A DNA stretch of 64,000 bases from Minisyncoccota bacterium (GCA_036517335.1 DATDWX010000006.1:1279-65278), one strand, 5' to 3'. Positions 6,889 through 45,535 are shown, counted from the stretch's first letter. The notes: a model not told the origin generated them from the sequence alone. Program-made: numbers and translations.

Positions 6889-7137
6889 ATGAGATCGAAA
6901 ACAACTGCGACAAAAAGGAAGGTGGTCCCCGGATACGATTTCTCCTATTTGTACCCGAAATATAGGGGGAAATGGGTTGCACTCACGCGCGATGCAAAGC
7001 GCGTGCTGGCCGTAAGTGATACTCTTGCCGGATTGGATCGGGATGCTGGAAAAGCTCTCGACGACGGAAAGGCGACTGTATATAGAGTGCCTGATACAGA
7101 TGCGTATTTTGTTGGCGGCTATGCGTTATTCATATAG
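6889..7137 (+). CDS. Small hypothetical protein upstream of the retropepsin-like protease
   Basis: 82-aa ORF (MRSKTTATKRKVVPGYDF...). It is the internal ATG of a longer ORF whose frame begins with TTG. Confidence 0.3.
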   Translation: MRSKTTATKRKVVPGYDFSYLYPKYRGKWVALTRDAKRVLAVSDTLAGLDRDAGKALDDGKATVYRVPDTDAYFVGGYALFI

Positions 7138-7183
7138 CATTGCGTTTCCTCCAAGAGAGGACGGTTCGTACATAATCCGCCCA

Positions 7184-7540
7184 ATGGTCGACATAAGAAT
7201 TTTTGGTCCCCAAGGTGAAAGAAATGCTAAGGCGCTTATCGATTCCGGGGCAGACTTTTCCATTGCACATGCAGAATACGCCGAAAAGCTCGGCGTTGAA
7301 AAGCAGCGCGACATTGAAATCGTTGGAGTAAACCGGCAACCTTTGAAAGGCTTTGTCGGAGTTATGGCACTGCATATTGAAGGTATTCCTGGCATGCGCG
7401 ACGTTCCATTCGTGTTTGTCGATCGGCCCTCGGAACACATAATTCTCGGTCAAGAAGGCTTTTTCGATATGCATCAAATACGGTTTGCACGACACCAGCG
7501 AATGTTCGAGATCACGAAGGTCCGCAATAAAAGCTCATAA
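7184..7540 (+). CDS. Retropepsin-like (retroviral-type) aspartic protease domain protein. The start is uncertain, with possible upstream starts at 7016 or 7100.
   Basis: Contains ALIDSGADFSIAH (the D-S/T-G-A catalytic motif of the retropepsin clan) followed by ILGQEGFF. Confidence 0.55.
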   Translation: MVDIRIFGPQGERNAKALIDSGADFSIAHAEYAEKLGVEKQRDIEIVGVNRQPLKGFVGVMALHIEGIPGMRDVPFVFVDRPSEHIILGQEGFFDMHQIRFARHQRMFEITKVRNKSS

Positions 7541-40113: not shown

Positions 40114-40992
40114 ATGACCCCATGCTTTGCGGTGGAGTTTGAGACACCAAAGAAATATATTTTGCGTGGGCTATGGTTCGGTCCGCCTGCCCGCCGTGGA
40201 GGGAAAAAACCCAGGCGCACGGTGCTCTGGGTGCACGGGCTCGGCTCCTCCGCTTTCAGCATGCATCACGTCACTAAGTCGCTTTTAAACAAAAACACAG
40301 GGGTCCTCACATTTAACAACCGTGGACACGATATTGTCAGCAAGACGCATTGCAGCGTCGGAAAAAGAGGGATCCTGGGAGGCACCGCCCATGAGAAGTT
40401 TACCGATTGCGTTGACGATATTCAGGGCGCGATCAATTTCGCACGCAAGCAAGGCGTGAAAAATATCTACCTTGCCGGGCACTCAACCGGCTGCCAGAAA
40501 TCCATCTATTGGGCATATAGAAAGAAGTCGCGCGTGGTGAAAGGAATAATTCTCCTTGCTCCCATCAGCGACTGGTCGGCCGAGATGCATTTGCAGGGCA
40601 AGAAAAAAATAGACCGCGCTACGAAGATTGCCCGACAGATGGTGCAACGAGGAAAGAAGCACGAACTACTGCCACCAGGGCTTTGGCACCAAGCACTTGA
40701 TGCGCAGCGATTTTTGAGTTTGTGCACACCTGATTCTGTGGAGGAAATATTTTCATACGCCCAACCGAACAAGAATCCGCGAACTTTACGCTCTGTTAGG
40801 AAACCCCTACTCGTTCTCTTGGCCGAAAAAGATGAATACGCCGACCGACCCGCAAAGGAAATCGCTGCGTGGTTTGAAAAAAATCTGACCAATAAACATA
40901 AAGTGGTGATTATCTCCGGCGTGAAGCATAGTTTTAAAGGCGCGGAGAAGCGGGTGGCGAAAGCTATAAAAGAATTCATTGCGGTACAATAA
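40114..40992 (+). CDS. Alpha/beta hydrolase fold protein
   Basis: Nucleophile elbow GHSTG and HGLGSS near the N-terminus. Confidence 0.7.
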   Translation: MTPCFAVEFETPKKYILRGLWFGPPARRGGKKPRRTVLWVHGLGSSAFSMHHVTKSLLNKNTGVLTFNNRGHDIVSKTHCSVGKRGILGGTAHEKFTDCVDDIQGAINFARKQGVKNIYLAGHSTGCQKSIYWAYRKKSRVVKGIILLAPISDWSAEMHLQGKKKIDRATKIARQMVQRGKKHELLPPGLWHQALDAQRFLSLCTPDSVEEIFSYAQPNKNPRTLRSVRKPLLVLLAEKDEYADRPAKEIAAWFEKNLTNKHKVVIISGVKHSFKGAEKRVAKAIKEFIAVQ

Positions 40993-41012
40993 CTTTCTAT
41001 GATGCATTTTAC

Positions 41013-41033
41013 TCTCTCTCTCTCTCTCTCGTA
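41013..41033. repeat. (TC)10 dinucleotide microsatellite
   Basis: ctctctctctctctctctctc lies between the hydrolase stop and the 3-prime end of the DGR RT gene. Confidence 0.9.
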
Positions 41034-41067
41034 TTCGCGCCTGACCTTTTGAAGGCGGAAGCAACAA

Positions 41068-42111
41068 TCACTTTCTTACCCAGTATCTGTTTTTCAGAGT
41101 TTTGCTCAACCGATGCGCGTCGGCGTGTTTCAGTGCGCCCAAATAGGATTGGAGAACCGCGTTCATTTCAGCGTCTTCGATGGCTCCGTTCCGGTAAAAA
41201 TAATAAGCATGTCTGATCTTGCGAAACATCCGCTGTTTGCTTTTCTCGCGCATCAGCCGATGATGCGGGAACTGAACGTACCCGAGAAAGTCTACTCCCT
41301 TGTGGTACTTAATTATTTCCACTTTATCCGGATGCAACCCAAGCTTGAGTTTTTCTTGCAGGAACTGTTCGATGGGGGCGAGCAGTTTTTCAAGTCCCGC
41401 TTTGTCGCTGGAAACGAGAATAAAATCGTCGGTGTAGCGGACGTAATGCTTTATCTTCAATTCTTGTTTAACAAACTGGTCAAACTCGTTCATGTACACG
41501 TTGGCAAAGAGTTGCGAAGTCAGATTGCCGATGGGCACGCCTCGCGCGTGAAAGAGGTCAGGGCGGCCGGACTCAAAGCTGTCAACGATTTCTTTCAGCA
41601 ACTGCATTACTTCCGGATCCTTGATCCGCCGCGCCAGTATTGCAAGCAATATCTCGTGATCGATGCTGTCAAAAAACTTCCGGACATCGCACTTCAAGGC
41701 ATAACACTCTCGTGTGCCGTTGCGGCTCACAGCGCGAAGCATCTGCGCCAGTCGCCCCACGCCCCTGTGCGTGCCCTTGCCAATGCGGCACGAAAAGGAG
41801 TCGGCAATGAAGCCTGGTTCGAAAATCGGATTGAGCATTTTGAAAATCGCGTGATGCAGCACACGGTCGCGCACCGTAGCTTTGTGAATATGTCTGCGTT
41901 TCGGATCAGTGATGTAGAAGCCGGTATACGGCCCATGCTTGTATATTTTGTTTCTAAGGTCTCGGTGCAACTGAAAAATATACTGCTCCACCTTTTGCTC
42001 GAAATTCATTACGTCTGCCTTGTTTCGCTTCTCGCTTTTAAATATGTCCCATGCCACGAACAGATGTTCGGCCGAGGTCATTCTCTCGAATATTCGCTTG
42101 TACGTTTTCAT
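41068..42111 (-). CDS. Diversity-generating retroelement (DGR) reverse transcriptase
   Basis: 347 aa. RT motifs include the catalytic YTDD (RYTDDFILV) and the DGR-specific IGNxxSQ motif (GVPIGNLTSQLFANVYMNEF) in place of the QGxxxSP of group II intron and retron RTs. Confidence 0.85.
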   Translation of the reverse strand: MKTYKRIFERMTSAEHLFVAWDIFKSEKRNKADVMNFEQKVEQYIFQLHRDLRNKIYKHGPYTGFYITDPKRRHIHKATVRDRVLHHAIFKMLNPIFEPGFIADSFSCRIGKGTHRGVGRLAQMLRAVSRNGTRECYALKCDVRKFFDSIDHEILLAILARRIKDPEVMQLLKEIVDSFESGRPDLFHARGVPIGNLTSQLFANVYMNEFDQFVKQELKIKHYVRYTDDFILVSSDKAGLEKLLAPIEQFLQEKLKLGLHPDKVEIIKYHKGVDFLGYVQFPHHRLMREKSKQRMFRKIRHAYYFYRNGAIEDAEMNAVLQSYLGALKHADAHRLSKTLKNRYWVRK

Positions 42112-42117
42112 ATATGA

Positions 42118-42464
42118 ATGACGCTGACATTCCCATTCTCAAAAAGTCCTACGACCTCTATCGCACTTTCAACGAGTACCGAAGGGTGGTGCCCAAGGCC
42201 GACCGCCATACGATCTACGAGCGTAGCGAGAATGCGATCCTCGACATGGTCGAGTACATACTCGAAGCCGGATACAGCAAGAGCGGCGACAAGGTAGCAA
42301 TTCTTGAACGCGCGAGCGTGAAGCTCAACCTATTGCGCTTTTTTGTACGGCTCATGAAAGAGACGCGTTCTATCGACACGAAGAAATATACCGTTCTGCA
42401 AGCTCACATCGATGAGATTGGCAGGATGCTCGGCGGGTGGATACGCTCGCAGGGGAGTAAGTAA
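42118..42464 (+). CDS. avd: DGR accessory variability determinant (Avd; four-helix-bundle protein, 23S rRNA-intervening-sequence protein family)
   Basis: About 115 aa (MNDADIPILKKSYDLYRTFNEY...LLRFFVRLMKETR...AHIDEIGRMLGGWIRSQ) with Avd-like helical segmentation and a basic C-terminus. It is divergent from the RT gene. Confidence 0.7.
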
Positions 42465-42513
42465 GCGAAAGGGCATCCTCTCGGATGCCCCAACGCCCGG
42501 TGAGGAGTGACTT

Positions 42514-42643
42514 CGGGACGGACACCGACACGGAGCCATAGTTCTCATTCGGCTTGTCGACGTCGTTCATGTCGAACTTCAGCTTGTCGTCGTTGAAGTT
42601 GAGGTACGGCGAGTTCGAGAACTCGGCCTCGTCGTCCGGACGT
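42514..42643 (-). repeat. DGR template repeat (TR), 130 bp, minus-strand sense
   Basis: The reverse complement aligns over 130 bp with the target gene 3-prime end (43964..44093). The 21-22 mismatches all fall at TR adenines (for example AAC to AGC/GGC/CGC/GTC, GAC to GGC, AAG to AGG/GGG). The last 27 bp are identical. Confidence 0.85.
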
Positions 42644-43169
42644 ATGCCTTCGCCCGTCCGTGGCACCGAAGCTCGAACGTCTTTCCTGTTGGCAACAGGC
42701 GGCGCTCTCACTCCTGAATTTTATCCGGCAGCAGGGGCTCCAAATAATTACATTGAGCTCAATCCTCTGCCTTGAACGAAGGCAAGCAGTATCTCCTCAC
42801 ACCGGCACTCTCTCGCGAACCGTGATCCGCAAAACTCTGGCCTGTTTCTCATCCAGCAGGATGACCTACTGGGTCGGAAGAGAAAGAGTTCGGCGACGGC
42901 AATCCGTGAACGGCCGTGCATTAGCCTAGACTCGTAATAAAGTATACCCTAGGAAGTCCTTGACCTATATCGTGATTTTGCCCACCACAAGTCGCTCCGC
43001 TCTTGACTAGGTGGCTCAATCCTGATATAGTGCCAGGCGGTCTTTGAAAACATGGATCACTAGTTGAGGCGAGCTTTTTGATGCTTGAATAATGTAGGCA
43101 CTAAAAAGCCCGCCTCACAAACGAGGCAGCCGCAACTGCTGAAGCGGATTCAGCGCAACCTGAGAAAGG

Positions 43170-44099
43170 ATGGCTCCGATGGTAACATTGGCTCCGTCTG
43201 TTACCCACAGCGATGACAAGGGCCGCAAGTTCATGGACATCGTCGGGACGGCATACGACAAGGCAAAGCTCCCCGAAGATGAAGCGCAAAACGTCAACGA
43301 CGCACCCGGTCTTGCCGAGGTGGTCGCCGGCTTCATCGCCGACAATCGGTCTTCCAACAAGTACAAGAAGGAGGAGGTCAAGCCGCGCTGGCCCTATCCG
43401 GCCAGCTACAAGCGCGAAGCGATCGAGCGGCAGATCGACATCCTGCGCTCGGCGGCGAACTTCCCGTTCATCGATCCGGATCCGGCGATCAAGTACTACC
43501 GCGAGGTGTACGGGTCGCTCCGGCAGCCGGAATGGGTGGAGGGGCCGTTCATCATCATGCCGACCTCGACCTTGGCCAAGCACTTCTTCCCCGAAATCAC
43601 CGACGTGGCCGATCAGCATTGCCGCGCCGTCAACATCGGGATCGAGAAGCTCGGCGCGTCGCGTCCGTTCCACAACTGGCGTGCAGGCGAAATCACGACG
43701 GATCGTTTCCGGCGGAAAGCCCGCTACGTCCCGATGTACGACCGGCTCTATGCGACACAGCCGAACAGCGACCTGATCGTCGTGGGCGGCCAGTACGGCA
43801 AGTTCCACGGTGGCCAGCCGATGCGTCGTGCGCTGGAGCGGATGCAAGGCCAAGTGAGCGAGCTTCCCGCCGGTGCGCTCGAGGGTGTCGTCATGGCACT
43901 CGCGAACCCGACCCGGTACTCCAAGTGGGAAGAGCTGGACACCGACCTTCCGGCGGACGAATTCCGTCCGGGCGACGAGGCCGGGTTCTCGGTCTCGCCG
44001 TACCTCAGCTTCGGCGGCGACAGGCTGAGGTTCGGCATGCGCGGCGTCGGCGGGCCGCTTGAGCGCTATGGCTCCGTGTCGGTGTCCGTCCCGCAGTGA
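43170..44099 (+). CDS. DGR target (variable) protein. The N-terminal ~265 aa are of unknown function, and the C-terminal VR is presumably C-type-lectin/FGE-like. No obvious signal peptide.
   Basis: 309-aa ORF whose last ~43 codons form the variable repeat. The C-terminus ...RPGDEAGFSVSPYLSFGGDRLRFGMRGVGGPLERYGSVSVSVPQ matches the TR-encoded ...RPDDEAEFSNSPYLNFNDDKLKFDMNDVDKPNENYGSVSVSVP. Confidence 0.8.
   Translation: MAPMVTLAPSVTHSDDKGRKFMDIVGTAYDKAKLPEDEAQNVNDAPGLAEVVAGFIADNRSSNKYKKEEVKPRWPYPASYKREAIERQIDILRSAANFPFIDPDPAIKYYREVYGSLRQPEWVEGPFIIMPTSTLAKHFFPEITDVADQHCRAVNIGIEKLGASRPFHNWRAGEITTDRFRRKARYVPMYDRLYATQPNSDLIVVGGQYGKFHGGQPMRRALERMQGQVSELPAGALEGVVMALANPTRYSKWEELDTDLPADEFRPGDEAGFSVSPYLSFGGDRLRFGMRGVGGPLERYGSVSVSVPQ
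43964..44093 (+). repeat. DGR variable repeat (VR) at the 3-prime end of the target gene
   Basis: See the TR entry: 130-bp match with only adenine-specific differences and a conserved 27-bp 3-prime end (the presumed IMH region, tatggctccgtgtcggtgtccgtcccg). Confidence 0.85.
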
Positions 44100-44196
44100 T
44101 CCTCGCATCTCGAATCCTCGGATCTTTTGATTTCTTGATCCCTGGGTTCGAAAATTTTTCAGGGCTGTCTACTCGCTGGGCAGCTCTGCTTTCTTT

Positions 44197-44229
44197 AAAA
44201 CCCGCAAGGCGACGCCTTGCGGGTTTTTT
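44197..44229 (+). terminator. Rho-independent terminator downstream of the DGR target gene
   Basis: aaaacccgcaaggc-gac-gccttgcgggtttttt: a perfect 12-bp stem followed by a T-run. Confidence 0.7.
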
Positions 44230-44264
44230 ACGAAACGCCAAGTAGCTATGCTAAACTTGCGCTC

Positions 44265-45008
44265 ATGAACGAGGGGATCAAGGTTATTTTGGCGCCAGAG
44301 CAGTTGGGGACCTTTTTTGGGATTCCCATTACGAATACTTTGCTGATGAGCTGGGTGGTCGTGGCACTCCTACTCGTCGTTGCCGTTCTCGTAGGTAAGC
44401 GCTTGCAGCTCACGCCGTCTCGCCCCCAGGTGCTCTTCGAGTGGCTCGTCGAATTCGTGTACGACTATATTGCCGAGATTTTGGAGAGCCGGGAGCTTGC
44501 GCGCAAATTCTTTCCATATCTCTGTACCGTCTTCCTGTTTATTTTCGTCTCAAATCTCATTGAATTCACGCCCGGCATTGGCTCCATCGGATTGTTTGCG
44601 CATGACGGGGAATTTTTTCCGCTCTTGCGCAGTGTAAACACCGACCTAAACGTCACTTTGATGCTCGCCATCCTTTCCTTCCTCGTCATCGAGATCACGG
44701 GCATCCTTGTCATCGGCGCTGCAAAATACGCCGGCAAATTTCTCAATTTCCGCCACGGCTTTGTTGGATTTTTCGTCGGTATTTTCGAATTTCTCTCCGA
44801 ACTCTCGCGCATCGTTTCGTTTTCGTTCCGTCTGTTTGGCAATGTATTCGCTGGCGAAGTGCTGATACTCGTCGTCATTTTCTTCCTGCCGGTCGTCGCG
44901 CCCGTGCCGGTCATGATGTTTGAGCTCTTTGTGGGCTTCGTGCAGGCCGCTATCTTCGCGCTTCTGACGCTCTTTTTCATCAAAATAGCCATCATGGACC
45001 CGCATTGA
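44265..45008 (+). CDS. atpB: F-type ATP synthase subunit a
   Basis: 247 aa from MNEGIKVILAPEQLG, with 5-6 TM segments and the conserved Arg region (LSRIVSFSFRLFGNVFAGEVL). Confidence 0.9.
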   Translation: MNEGIKVILAPEQLGTFFGIPITNTLLMSWVVVALLLVVAVLVGKRLQLTPSRPQVLFEWLVEFVYDYIAEILESRELARKFFPYLCTVFLFIFVSNLIEFTPGIGSIGLFAHDGEFFPLLRSVNTDLNVTLMLAILSFLVIEITGILVIGAAKYAGKFLNFRHGFVGFFVGIFEFLSELSRIVSFSFRLFGNVFAGEVLILVVIFFLPVVAPVPVMMFELFVGFVQAAIFALLTLFFIKIAIMDPH

Positions 45009-45011
45009 TCG

Positions 45012-45311
45012 TTGAATATAAGAGTCATGATGCGTTTTGAATCTCCATACGGCCACATTGTGCTCACCGACGAACGCAAGCAACATATCCTTGCGTATCA
45101 TCCCGACATGGCCGACTGTTTTCGGCACTTCGCATTGACGCTTGCAAAGCCGGAGCGCGAGATCCGCTCGGTGCATGATCCATTGGCCATCATCTGCTAC
45201 AAATTTCTTCCACATCGTAAGAAATACCTTGCAATCGTGGTCAAAACGGGCGTACACCCGTTCGTATTAACCGCGTATTTGGTAAAAAGGCTGAGGGGCG
45301 CTACACTTTGA
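45012..45311 (+). CDS. DUF4258-family protein (toxin component of the DUF4258/DUF2283 type II TA pair)
   Basis: 99 aa (...HIVLTDERKQHILAYHP...KYLAIVVKTGVHPFVLTAYLVKRL), a pattern typical of DUF4258. The stop overlaps the start of the next ORF (ATGA). Confidence 0.55.
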   Translation: MNIRVMMRFESPYGHIVLTDERKQHILAYHPDMADCFRHFALTLAKPEREIRSVHDPLAIICYKFLPHRKKYLAIVVKTGVHPFVLTAYLVKRLRGATL

Positions 45312-45535
45312 ACATGCTTAGATACTTCTATGACAAAGAGGCCGATGTGTTTTATTTCTCGCAGGGCGTTCCGAGCGCATCGGATGAGACAATCGAAGCA
45401 GGAGATGACGTGCTTCTGCGCATTGCTCCGCGCTCAAAGAAAGTTCGCGGCTTCACGCTCCTCAACGCCTCACGCCGTTTGCGCGGCACCTCGCGCTCGG
45501 CGGTGCTTCCATTCATACTCGCCCCTACAAGATGA
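45308..45535 (+). CDS. DUF2283-family protein (antitoxin partner of DUF4258)
   Basis: 75 aa beginning MLRYFYDKEADVFYFS, which matches the DUF2283 hallmark YDxEADxLYI. Confidence 0.6.
   Translation: MNMLRYFYDKEADVFYFSQGVPSASDETIEAGDDVLLRIAPRSKKVRGFTLLNASRRLRGTSRSAVLPFILAPTR

Follow-up and report, generated by a model that had tools for sequence, protein, structure and literature searches.

The locus described here raises two questions: whether it is a complete and working diversity-generating retroelement (DGR) and, if so, which RNA its reverse transcriptase (RT) would bind. It lies in a stretch of 64,000 nt (the window) from a Paceibacterota MAG, on the chromosome, with an alpha/beta-hydrolase gene on one side and the ATP synthase operon on the other. 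Work on DGR RNA has so far rested on the Bordetella phage element, in which the functional RNA lies 3′ of the template repeat (TR), and in one comparative survey of DGR RNA only 40 nt upstream and 100 nt downstream of the TR were examined. Taken simply as a DGR the locus brings little that is new: DGRs of exactly this architecture, with targets of unknown function, are known to abound in the genomes of the ultra-small Patescibacteria (CPR), and the DGR itself is of a known kind because the B3 order TR-(avd)-RT is typical of CPR DGRs. The core parts are as follows.

41068..42111, minus strand: DGR RT gene, 347 aa, intact, with IGNLTSQ and YTDD motifs in the ORF translation
42114..42464, plus strand: avd accessory gene, 116 aa, divergent from the RT gene
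42510..42642, minus strand: TR, 133 nt with 33 adenines, from a scripted recount and an independent repeat search
43170..44099, plus strand: DGR target gene, 309 aa, a GC-rich island, with a helical N-terminal region and a C-type-lectin/FGE-like domain predicted
43965..44097, plus strand: variable repeat (VR), the final 44 codons of the target gene, from the recount and repeat search
44067..44093, plus strand: IMH-like invariant GC-rich 27 bp at the 3′ end of the VR, with its TR counterpart at 42514..42540

An earlier note on this DNA had claimed a complete DGR (RT, Avd, TR and a target with a C-terminal VR), and all parts were found, with adenine-only differences between the repeats. The RT ORF that it described with IGNxxSQ and YTDD carries both motifs and matches Pfam RVT_1 (93 bits). 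The divergent avd gene was also present, but its start is at 42114, position 42118 belonging to another frame. The repeat that it had placed as 130 bp at 42514..42643 was likewise real with boundaries that shift by 1-4 nt to give 133 nt, such that position 43964 in its mismatch list falls just outside the repeat while an A>C change at the last codon (AAG/CAG) falls inside. TR and VR are 83% identical over 133 nt, the scripted recount and the independent repeat search agreeing, and when the mismatches were tabulated against the TR base, 22 of 22 were at TR adenines (16 A>G, 4 A>C and 2 A>T; hypergeometric P = 2.6e-17), in keeping with the 21-22 adenine-confined differences counted before. Twenty-two of the 33 TR adenines are thus changed. 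By codon position the 33 adenines fall 11 at position 1, 22 at position 2 and none at position 3, and the five AAC codons and one AAT previously noted in the TR were counted again. The identical 3′ 27 bp (TATGGCTCCGTGTCGGTGTCCGTCCCG) also held, being an exact match between TR and VR that occurs as two copies only in the window and in none of the shuffles; the TR and VR flanks diverge within 6 nt past it, an IMH versus IMH* arrangement in which the role of the IMH is putative. There is no third VR-like copy in the whole 64 kb.

This organization is shared with related loci. Among 21 related TR/VR pairs, 91-100% of differences are adenine-specific, the TR is always on the RT strand and avd lies antisense between TR and RT; the order TR, antisense avd, RT recurs in about 100 metagenome loci. 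The divergent avd/RT pair, with start codons 2 nt apart in the window, is kept in all related loci. Target and RT are on opposite strands in the window and in no fewer than 13 of about 140 related loci; most others have them on the same strand.

Between the TR and the antisense avd gene there is only about 50 nt of non-coding RNA, and therefore the RNA that binds the RT must be elsewhere. The features that bear on where it might lie are these.

42643..42933, minus strand: structured non-coding leader RNA, about 290 nt with 9 helices, directly 5′ of the TR
42941..42946, minus strand: TATACT box, putative −10 of the leader-TR transcript, 8 nt ahead of where conservation of the leader sets in
42793..42800, minus strand: leader segment GUGAGGAG, proposed 5′ strand of a long-range duplex (family consensus GAGGAGA)
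42500..42509, minus strand: pyrimidine motif just 3′ of the TR, CACUCCUCAC, proposed 3′ strand of that duplex (family consensus UCUCUCCUC)
42470..42491, minus strand: stem-loop 3′ of the TR, GGGGCAUCC-GAGA-GGAUGCCCU, candidate Avd-binding stem-loop and possibly the avd terminator

The leader was conserved in all of the 19 loci compared first, without a conserved ORF; a conserved small ORF between TR and target was rejected, since the frames differ and stop codons are present. RNAalifold predicted 59 pairs, 36 of them with compensatory changes, and 95.3% of leader cells were paired compared with 35-53% in slid controls. In alignment A7, 98.7% were paired with 23 of 30 pairs compensatory, slid controls over the leader tests ranged from 31 to 58% paired and shuffles reached the observed values in 0 of 500 cases. 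Covariation is very strong across more than 60 loci. The covariance model R1, a partial model of a leader that at full length spans more than 400 alignment columns, has a single match in the window (42783..42933, 112 bits) and matches 71 related loci. The RNA is placed on the TR strand because of its many G-U pairs. Helix 5 of the RNAalifold prediction was discarded, showing no compensatory change, and long-range pairing with the post-TR motif explains its bases better. No Rfam match was found over 40500-45000 at E<=1, other than a chance sRNA hit inside the VR. The TATA(C/A)T box aligns in most loci, with TG preceding several; no promoter for the leader was flagged by a consensus scan, and because that scan missed the TATACT box its assignment as the −10 is an inference.

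Two elements 3′ of the TR complete the predicted transcript. The post-TR stem-loop, with a 9-bp stem and GAGA tetraloop, is predicted for the window RNA by the MFE as well as the centroid fold, and almost every related locus has a strong hairpin of another sequence in this position. Of 278 DGRs, 207 have been described as having a stem-loop 3′ of the TR, an Avd-binding element (Handa et al., bioRxiv 10.1101/2023.10.23.563531), and the hairpin in the window, a candidate for this role, matches it. In addition, the leader probably pairs with the sequence just 3′ of the TR, a proposal with moderate support from the alignments. In alignment A5 this duplex was 84% paired against 51-67% in slid controls, with 6 of 9 pairs changed on both sides, and it is retained in the MFE fold of the window RNA; 15 of 500 shuffles equalled the observed number of covarying pairs, both strands being highly conserved.

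By analogy with the Bordetella phage DGR a mechanism can be proposed. What has been shown is that all its parts are there, that the repeats differ at adenines only, and that the RNA is structured and keeps its place in more than 100 loci. Transcription would start at the TATACT box near 42941 on the minus strand, giving an RNA made up of the folded leader of about 290 nt, the 133-nt TR, the pyrimidine motif and the GAGA-tetraloop stem-loop. The closing helix of the leader would stop just before the TR while GUGAGGAG in the leader would pair with CUCCUCAC after it, and thus both ends of the TR would be joined on an RNA scaffold with the TR looped out. RT and Avd would bind this RNA and make a cDNA of the TR with misincorporations opposite the 33 template adenines; this cDNA would take the place of the VR, 3′-terminal in the target gene, up to a 3′ boundary set by the invariant 27-bp IMH-like end. 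Up to 22 codons could be recoded in this way on the predicted C-type-lectin-like domain of the 309-aa target, with about 10^19 variants possible. The leader would then be the RT/Avd scaffold, taking the role of the Bordetella spacer 3′ of the TR.

A rival explanation is that the leader is a cis-regulatory 5′ UTR (riboswitch-like or protein-binding) for TR and RT, or an independent small RNA. Its position between a promoter-like box and the TR would fit, the essential RNA elements of Bordetella are 3′ rather than 5′ of the TR, and the post-TR hairpin is followed by a U-run in many loci and might terminate transcription ahead of the RT in a regulated way. However, the closing helix, which ends about 10 nt before the TR, abuts it in every locus, a leader segment pairs with the motif 3′ of the TR in a way that resembles the upstream/downstream duplex of the Bordetella DGR RNA, and the leader is found only with this DGR lineage. 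A purely regulatory or independent RNA is therefore considered rather unlikely, though it keeps appreciable weight. The scaffold reading, in which the DGR RNA is permuted relative to Bordetella with a 5′ leader clamping both TR ends, is taken here together with an RT gated by a (GA)n tract in about one third of relatives; the combined proposal is tentative, with nearly as good a prospect of holding as of failing. Its permuted-RNA part covers more than 120 loci and a target family of about 2,000 clusters, and in the window the leader is present and the RT uninterrupted.

The second part of that proposal concerns a repeat tract near the RT.

41012..41029, minus strand: (GA)9 tract, lying about 40 nt beyond the stop codon of the RT gene; no other run of (GA)>=5 occurs in the 64 kb

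The CGA(GA)nGTAA motif to which this tract belongs is found within the RT gene of one third of relatives, where it splits the gene out of frame; the RT gene in the window has no such interruption by a (GA)n tract. Programmed ribosomal frameshifting at the relatives' tract was rejected because the shift needed differs, being +1 in 9 loci and +2 in 15, which does not suit a frameshift of fixed direction. Slipped-strand variation in tract length fits better. If this is true, the (GA)n contingency tract in relatives would turn a hypermutation machinery on and off by phase variation.

On the recipient side, the region that follows the VR holds two further features, and a promoter-like site precedes the target gene.

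44100..44160, plus strand: periodic YTTG/CTCG motifs following the VR, spaced 7-9 nt apart in the family, which may act as a cis element on the recipient side
44160..44188, plus strand: hairpin of 12 pairs downstream of the VR; in relatives it carries a conserved TTATCCACA, from which the window copy has diverged
43003..43031, plus strand: promoter-like site for the target gene, TTGACT-17-TATAGT, TG-extended, with 10/12 matches, a consensus match only

The post-VR motif recurs past the stop codon in nearly all loci, including target loci that have no RT. Its periodicity was not detected by TRF (Tandem Repeats Finder) in the window alone and is visible only across the family. Pairing of the motif with the leader, TR or post-TR RNA was rejected as no locus scored above shuffles, the sole exceptions being overlap artefacts in three compact loci. 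The DnaA-box-like TTATCCACA hairpin, with at most 1 mismatch, was present in 25 of 72 relatives compared with 4% of random segments; as a feature of the window it was rejected, the copy there having 3 mismatches.

The target protein has no family match in PHROGs, Pfam or NCBIfam, in agreement with the claim that its N-terminus was unrecognisable, and it has no PF03781 match. The absence of a signal peptide had also been claimed, and neither a lipoprotein nor a signal sequence was found; the target is probably a non-membrane protein. Its start by the NCBI call is 43179 rather than 43170. In the predicted model it appears to fold as a divergent C-type-lectin/FGE-like domain, preceded by a helical N-terminal region that is conserved and family-specific. 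The family comprises 1,999 representatives at 50% identity, and nearly all of the genome loci recovered for it are labelled Patescibacteria. Near-identical proteins occur in related samples such as SRR3989344 and SRR3990167. Target genes are GC3-rich islands regardless of host GC. A target swap between the window and locus L035 (RT 82%, avd 91% and target 36% identical) was considered and rejected because nucleotide similarity reaches from the RT into the target as far as codon 90 and is found again at the VR; the central part of the target has only evolved faster.

The same family bears on whether the element still acts. It could be a fossil, in which the adenine-specific differences record past activity and the target is no longer diversified. 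Two close proteins, P0033 (98% identical) and P0035 (97%), share the exact VR of the window and differ elsewhere, and therefore either diversification is not rapid in the population or those VRs are under selection. Decay is also common in the lineage, since many relatives' RT genes are out of frame and several related loci retain leader and target having lost avd and RT. Against this, the window has an undamaged RT, avd, TR, leader and VR, the RT keeps its catalytic motifs, and all 33 TR adenines are still off third codon positions. Moreover, in the near-identical variant P0034 (94%), a read-level protein prediction in which adenine specificity is judged at the codon level only, 8 of 27 aligned VR residues differ, all at A-containing TR codons, compared with differences of about 4% of the protein outside the VR. 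A fossil element is thus improbable, and the locus is with high confidence a complete DGR of the Patescibacteria (CPR) lineage, chromosomal in Paceibacterota, which is probably functional, its activity being something that we infer.

The affiliation of the two proteins is in keeping with this. The best PDB relative of the RT is bRT (8ub7_A, E 2e-48, 169 bits over residues 2-344), with the best group II intron RT in the PDB comparison at 91 bits, and it matches phrog_1423 at 410 bits. Against NCBIfam, which holds no DGR RT model, it scored 157 bits to group_II_RT_mat (cut-off 300) and 61 bits to the Retron St85 RT (cut-off 235), reaching neither family cut-off. The avd product scores 87.3 bits to NCBIfam DivGenRetAVD (curated cut-off 80) and 65 bits to Pfam bAvd, and matches phrog_3206 'Avd protein of DGR'. 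That the RT is of group II intron, retron or defence type, with TR and VR an ordinary diverged duplication, is refuted, for although group_II_RT_mat is its best match in that NCBIfam library the score is far under the cut-off, bRT outscores every intron RT by a wide margin, the Rfam search gave no intron or retron RNA family, Avd is present and confinement of the mismatches to adenines has P ~3e-17 under a random model.

No mention of the 290-nt leader, the post-VR motif or the GC3 bias was found in the part of the CPR DGR literature covered. The leader is absent from Rfam, and what may be new here is a large conserved folded RNA preceding the template. It is a testable candidate for RNP assembly in DGRs with an antisense avd, and its covariance model can find such DGRs without protein searches. 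Together the leader, the target N-terminal region, the GC3 enrichment, the post-VR motif and the (GA)n tracts are leads on two questions, namely the function of CPR DGR targets and the control of diversification.

Among known systems the closest are the CPR DGRs, of which 90% have architecture B3, TR-(avd)-RT (Wu et al., 2018, PMC5758913), and of which clade 2 has targets without recognisable domains (Roux et al., 2021, PMC8144416). On gene order, host and target features the locus is a member of this CPR type, B3 (PMC5758913) and clade 2 (PMC8144416), the latter by description rather than RT phylogeny. It resembles these DGRs in its Patescibacteria host, chromosomal site, gene order and orientation, C-terminal VR, adenine-specific mutagenesis and a target without transmembrane or recognisable domain, and differs from their commoner arrangement in that its target is inverted relative to the RT. 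Unlike TvpA (Treponema denticola, 2y3c) and FGE-type targets, to which it has no sequence similarity, the target has a family-specific conserved N-terminal helical region and, unlike TvpA, no lipoprotein or signal sequence. Structured RNAs beside bacterial RT genes include the Rfam motif RT-10, which is the BPP-1 spacer RNA, and the RT-1 to RT-19 motifs (Weinberg et al., 2017, PMC5737381). Of these, RT-10 belongs to a DGR, where it lies between TR and RT, whereas the leader is 5′ of the TR and about 290 nt long; in contrast to RT-10 and the other RT-1 to RT-19 motifs, the window region has no Rfam match at E<=1.

With the DGR of Bordetella phage BPP-1 the locus shares an RT collinear with bRT (E 2e-48), a homologous Avd, a TR of about 130 nt with AAC codons, an invariant GC-rich IMH-like 3′ end and a tetraloop stem-loop 3′ of the TR. 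The target is not a phage tail fibre as in BPP-1, and after the VR there is a periodic YTTG motif where BPP-1 has a GC-rich cruciform immediately after the IMH. In BPP-1 (mtd-avd-TR-brt) all genes are on one strand whereas in the window avd is antisense between TR and RT. The RNA that wraps the RT in BPP-1 is the 140-nt spacer 3′ of the TR (bRT-Avd-RNA cryo-EM structure 8ub7; bioRxiv 10.1101/2023.10.23.563531) and only about 20 nt upstream of the TR are needed (Handa et al., bioRxiv 10.1101/2023.10.23.563531), whereas in the window about 50 nt of non-coding RNA follow the TR and the large structured RNA lies 5′ of it.

The adenine-specific repeat pair that the earlier note had read from the DNA is real, with a script recount and separate repeat detection both recovering template repeat (TR) and variable repeat (VR) arms of 133 nt at 83% identity. 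All 22 mismatches fall at TR adenines (16 A>G, 4 A>C, 2 A>T) and, with 33 adenines in the 133 nt, the probability of 22 random mismatches all landing on them is P = 2.6e-17. The TR adenines occupy codon position 1 (11) and position 2 (22) with 0 at position 3, and a codon recount upheld the five AAC codons plus one AAT reported before. The 27-bp 3′ end, likewise described as identical, is exact in TR and VR and occurs only twice in the window, where no third TR/VR-like copy was found when scoring non-adenine positions only. The earlier coordinates were correct to within 4 nt, the avd (accessory variability determinant) start being moved from 42118 to 42114. The features of the diversity-generating retroelement (DGR) are:

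41012-41029: (GA)9 tract about 40 nt past the RT stop codon, flanked by CGA...GTAA as in relatives
41068..42111, minus strand: reverse transcriptase (RT) gene, 347 aa, with IGNLTSQ and YTDD and a match to RVT_1
42114..42464, plus strand: avd gene, 116 aa, with NCBIfam, Pfam and PHROG matches
42470-42491, minus strand: stem-loop 3′ of TR, 9 bp with a GAGA tetraloop
42510-42642, minus strand: TR arm
42643..42933, minus strand: leader RNA, about 290 nt directly upstream of TR, structured and conserved
43170..44099, plus strand: target gene, 309 aa
43965-44097, plus strand: VR arm
44100-44188, plus strand: post-VR region, YTTG/CTCG motifs then a hairpin, compared over 72 loci

The DGR-type motifs claimed for the RT are present in its translation, and its closest solved structure is 8ub7_A (E 2e-48, 169 bits, residues 2-344 against 3-324), the Bordetella phage DGR RT within the bRT-Avd-RNA complex, with the best group II intron RT structure scoring 91 bits. 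The RT matched phrog_1423 at 410 bits, while its top match in NCBIfam, a collection without a DGR RT model, was a group II maturase at 157 bits, below the cut-off of 300. The divergent gene described as Avd-like matched curated Avd models, exceeding the NCBIfam DGR Avd equivalog cut-off (87.3 bits vs 80) and matching Pfam bAvd and phrog_3206. The divergent RT and avd start codons are separated by 2 nt (CAT AT ATG; window 42109-42116) such that the promoter and ribosome-binding site of each must be located within its partner gene or still further upstream. Any transcript spanning leader, TR and RT would run fully antisense to avd.

The target protein, in which no recognisable motif or signal peptide had been seen, matched no family in Pfam, NCBIfam or PHROG, and inspection of the translation by eye showed neither a hydrophobic stretch nor a signal sequence. 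Its sequence is shared, at 100% identity, with a hypothetical protein from a Candidatus Paceibacterota MAG, and a profile built from 28 relatives found 1,999 representatives at 50% identity (966 at E<=1e-30, nearly all of 230-320 aa), indicating a target family that is large but unnamed. In the family alignment conservation is strong over the first ~60 residues, and the hypervariable block coincides with the VR. The target genes are GC-rich islands at every locus (window 43170-44099; related loci L001-L035), with a GC3 of 0.65-0.85 in the target body, VR excluded, whatever the host GC, and of 0.27-0.72 in RT and avd, tracking the host; at L013 the values are 0.71 for the target vs 0.28.

Sequence search and translation identified an alpha/beta hydrolase and ATP synthase subunit a as neighbours, with S-adenosylhomocysteine hydrolase, assigned by eye from its translation, also adjoining; these housekeeping genes place the element on the chromosome. 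Between ATP synthase genes lie two small overlapping ORFs (45012-45535), one with DUF2283, that look like a small two-gene module set into the atp operon. A locus search of the genomes of species representatives returned 36 places, nearly all labelled as Patescibacteria (CPR) groups with a few generic or other. In relatives with an RT, avd is always head to head with RT, and TR lies past the avd 3′ end on the RT strand. The 21 TR/VR pairs in relatives carry 14-27 mismatches each, 91-100% of them at TR adenines. The target upstream of TR is on the same strand in most loci and on the opposite strand in the window and at least 13 others, with two targets per single TR at 3 loci. About 15 loci hold a target homologue with no RT within 6 kb. 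The homologues at L002, L011, L015-L017, L020, L021, L024, L027, L034 and L037 have RT, avd and leader all absent over 6 kb, and several of them retain the post-VR motif; a DGR at another site of the genome may act on them in trans, or they may be orphaned. At L056, L066, L093, L121, L137 and L147 leader and target are kept with avd and RT absent over more than 3 kb downstream, and L008 has a weak leader match (7078-7196, 57 bits) and no RT; these loci may represent decayed elements.

The leader, which the first reading of the window had not mentioned, is conserved at every DGR locus of the lineage (window; L001, L004-L159), at least 120 metagenome loci among them, and no conserved reading frame was found in it across related loci. 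RNAalifold analysis of 17 leader sequences gave 9 helices comprising 59 pairs, of which 36 have compensatory changes, and 95.3% of cells paired vs 35-53% when partners were slid along by 1-3 columns. Covariation scored 0.58 vs 0.12-0.19 in the slid controls, and 0/500 shuffles reached the observed values. The many conserved G-U pairs place the RNA on the TR/RT strand. A covariance model of the 5′ half only (125 positions) had a single match in the window (42783..42933, 112 bits, E 7e-24) and 71 matched places in 90 loci of relatives. Among 63 distinct leader sequences 98.7% of cells were paired vs 31-58% slid, with compensatory changes in 23 of 30 pairs and all four Watson-Crick pairs represented at some positions, figures that lean towards the model to which the alignment was fitted. 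A sequence pattern built from two conserved blocks occurred in at least 119 metagenome stretches and one viral contig; in nearly all sufficiently long loci avd, on the opposite strand, starts ~320 nt and RT ~670 nt downstream, with a target homologue upstream. On these sequence comparisons the leader RNA is strongly supported. Rfam 15, including its RT-1 to RT-19 motifs, of which RT-10 corresponds to the Bordetella spacer (PMC5737381), gave no match to the leader at E<=1, and literature searches found no published description of it; a comparative analysis of DGR RNA elements covered the stretch from 40 nt before TR to 100 nt after it.

The longest-range leader helix ends about 10 nt ahead of TR, and just 5′ of it lies GUGAGGAG (consensus GAGGAGA), complementary to the conserved CUCCUCAC (consensus UCUCCUC) immediately 3′ of TR. 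In 17 loci compared, the two segments pair in 84% of cells vs 51-67% slid, with 6 of 9 pairs changed on both sides, and the duplex is in both the minimum-energy and centroid folds of the window. Since both strands are conserved, support for pairing between leader and post-TR motif is moderate. The adjacent helices would hold both ends of TR with TR looped out, a geometry like that of the Bordetella DGR RNA, where cryo-EM has the spacer 3′ of TR paired with the TR end and a segment upstream of TR. With only about 50 nt between TR and the avd end, we infer by analogy that the leader provides the RT-binding scaffold for which Bordetella uses that 3′ spacer. A stem-loop 12-25 nt past TR in nearly all loci matches the ‘Avd-binding stem-loop’ reported in 207/278 DGRs (bioRxiv 10.1101/2023.10.23.563531). 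Upstream, a TATA(C/A)T box, often preceded by TG, lies 8-12 nt ahead of the first conserved leader base and suggests where transcription starts; a consensus promoter scan of the window did not flag it. Antisense transcription leaving the target gene could be kept from the leader by a terminator-like hairpin and T-run (43109-43129, minus strand), which lies between the start of the target and the promoter region of the leader.

Nearly all targets, including those with no nearby RT, carry past the stop codon a stretch of ~60 nt with YTTG/CTCG motifs at 7-9 nt spacing and then a hairpin. No complementarity of the post-VR motif to the DGR RNA was found. In 25 of 72 loci the hairpin holds TTATCCACA, the DnaA-box consensus, with no more than 1 mismatch, vs 4% of random segments; that of the window has diverged and lacks TTATCCACA.

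Of 78 related loci in which both halves of the RT are present, 26 have a (GA)4-23 tract that splits the gene after motif 3 and before IGNLTSQ (L004 3444-3461, L010 8439-8472, L014 6846-6877, L023 3452-3473, L025 2692-2715, L028 7873-7890, L031 4370-4381 and 19 more). At several of the loci examined, GTAA and a small hairpin come next. Past the tract the frame is lost in 24 of these RTs, by +1 in 9 and by +2 in 15, and kept in 2 (one sequence, seen twice), while all 52 tract-free RTs are in frame. The tract resembles a slipped-strand on/off switch, set to off in most cases, with assembly error a residual alternative for the frame shifts. Literature searches found no published account of such tracts in these RTs. 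The RT of the window is free of internal tracts; (GA)9, which is the one tract of (GA)>=5 anywhere in the 64 kb, sits in the gap of 75 nt leading to the convergent hydrolase gene.

All DGR parts are intact in the window. In P0034, a read-level protein 94% identical to the target, 8 of 27 aligned VR residues differ, every one at a TR codon with adenine, compared with ~4% of positions elsewhere; two other variants (97-98% identical) have exactly the VR of the window. The P0034 changes speak for activity, whereas the two unchanged VRs speak against rapid activity. Taken with the intact parts, this comparison leads us to consider the element functional, its current activity being putative.

The gene order of the window locus is that of architecture B3, ‘TR-(avd)-RT’, which 90% of CPR DGRs share and which is nearly absent outside the CPR (PMC5758913). 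The target agrees with the description by Roux et al. of CPR DGR clade 2 targets as lacking transmembrane or conserved domains and probably being novel C-Lec variants (PMC8144416). The window element is thus a CPR DGR of architecture B3 and an ordinary example of its kind, supporting the earlier interpretation. A DGR is expected in such hosts; the leader RNA and the other family-level features merit pursuit.
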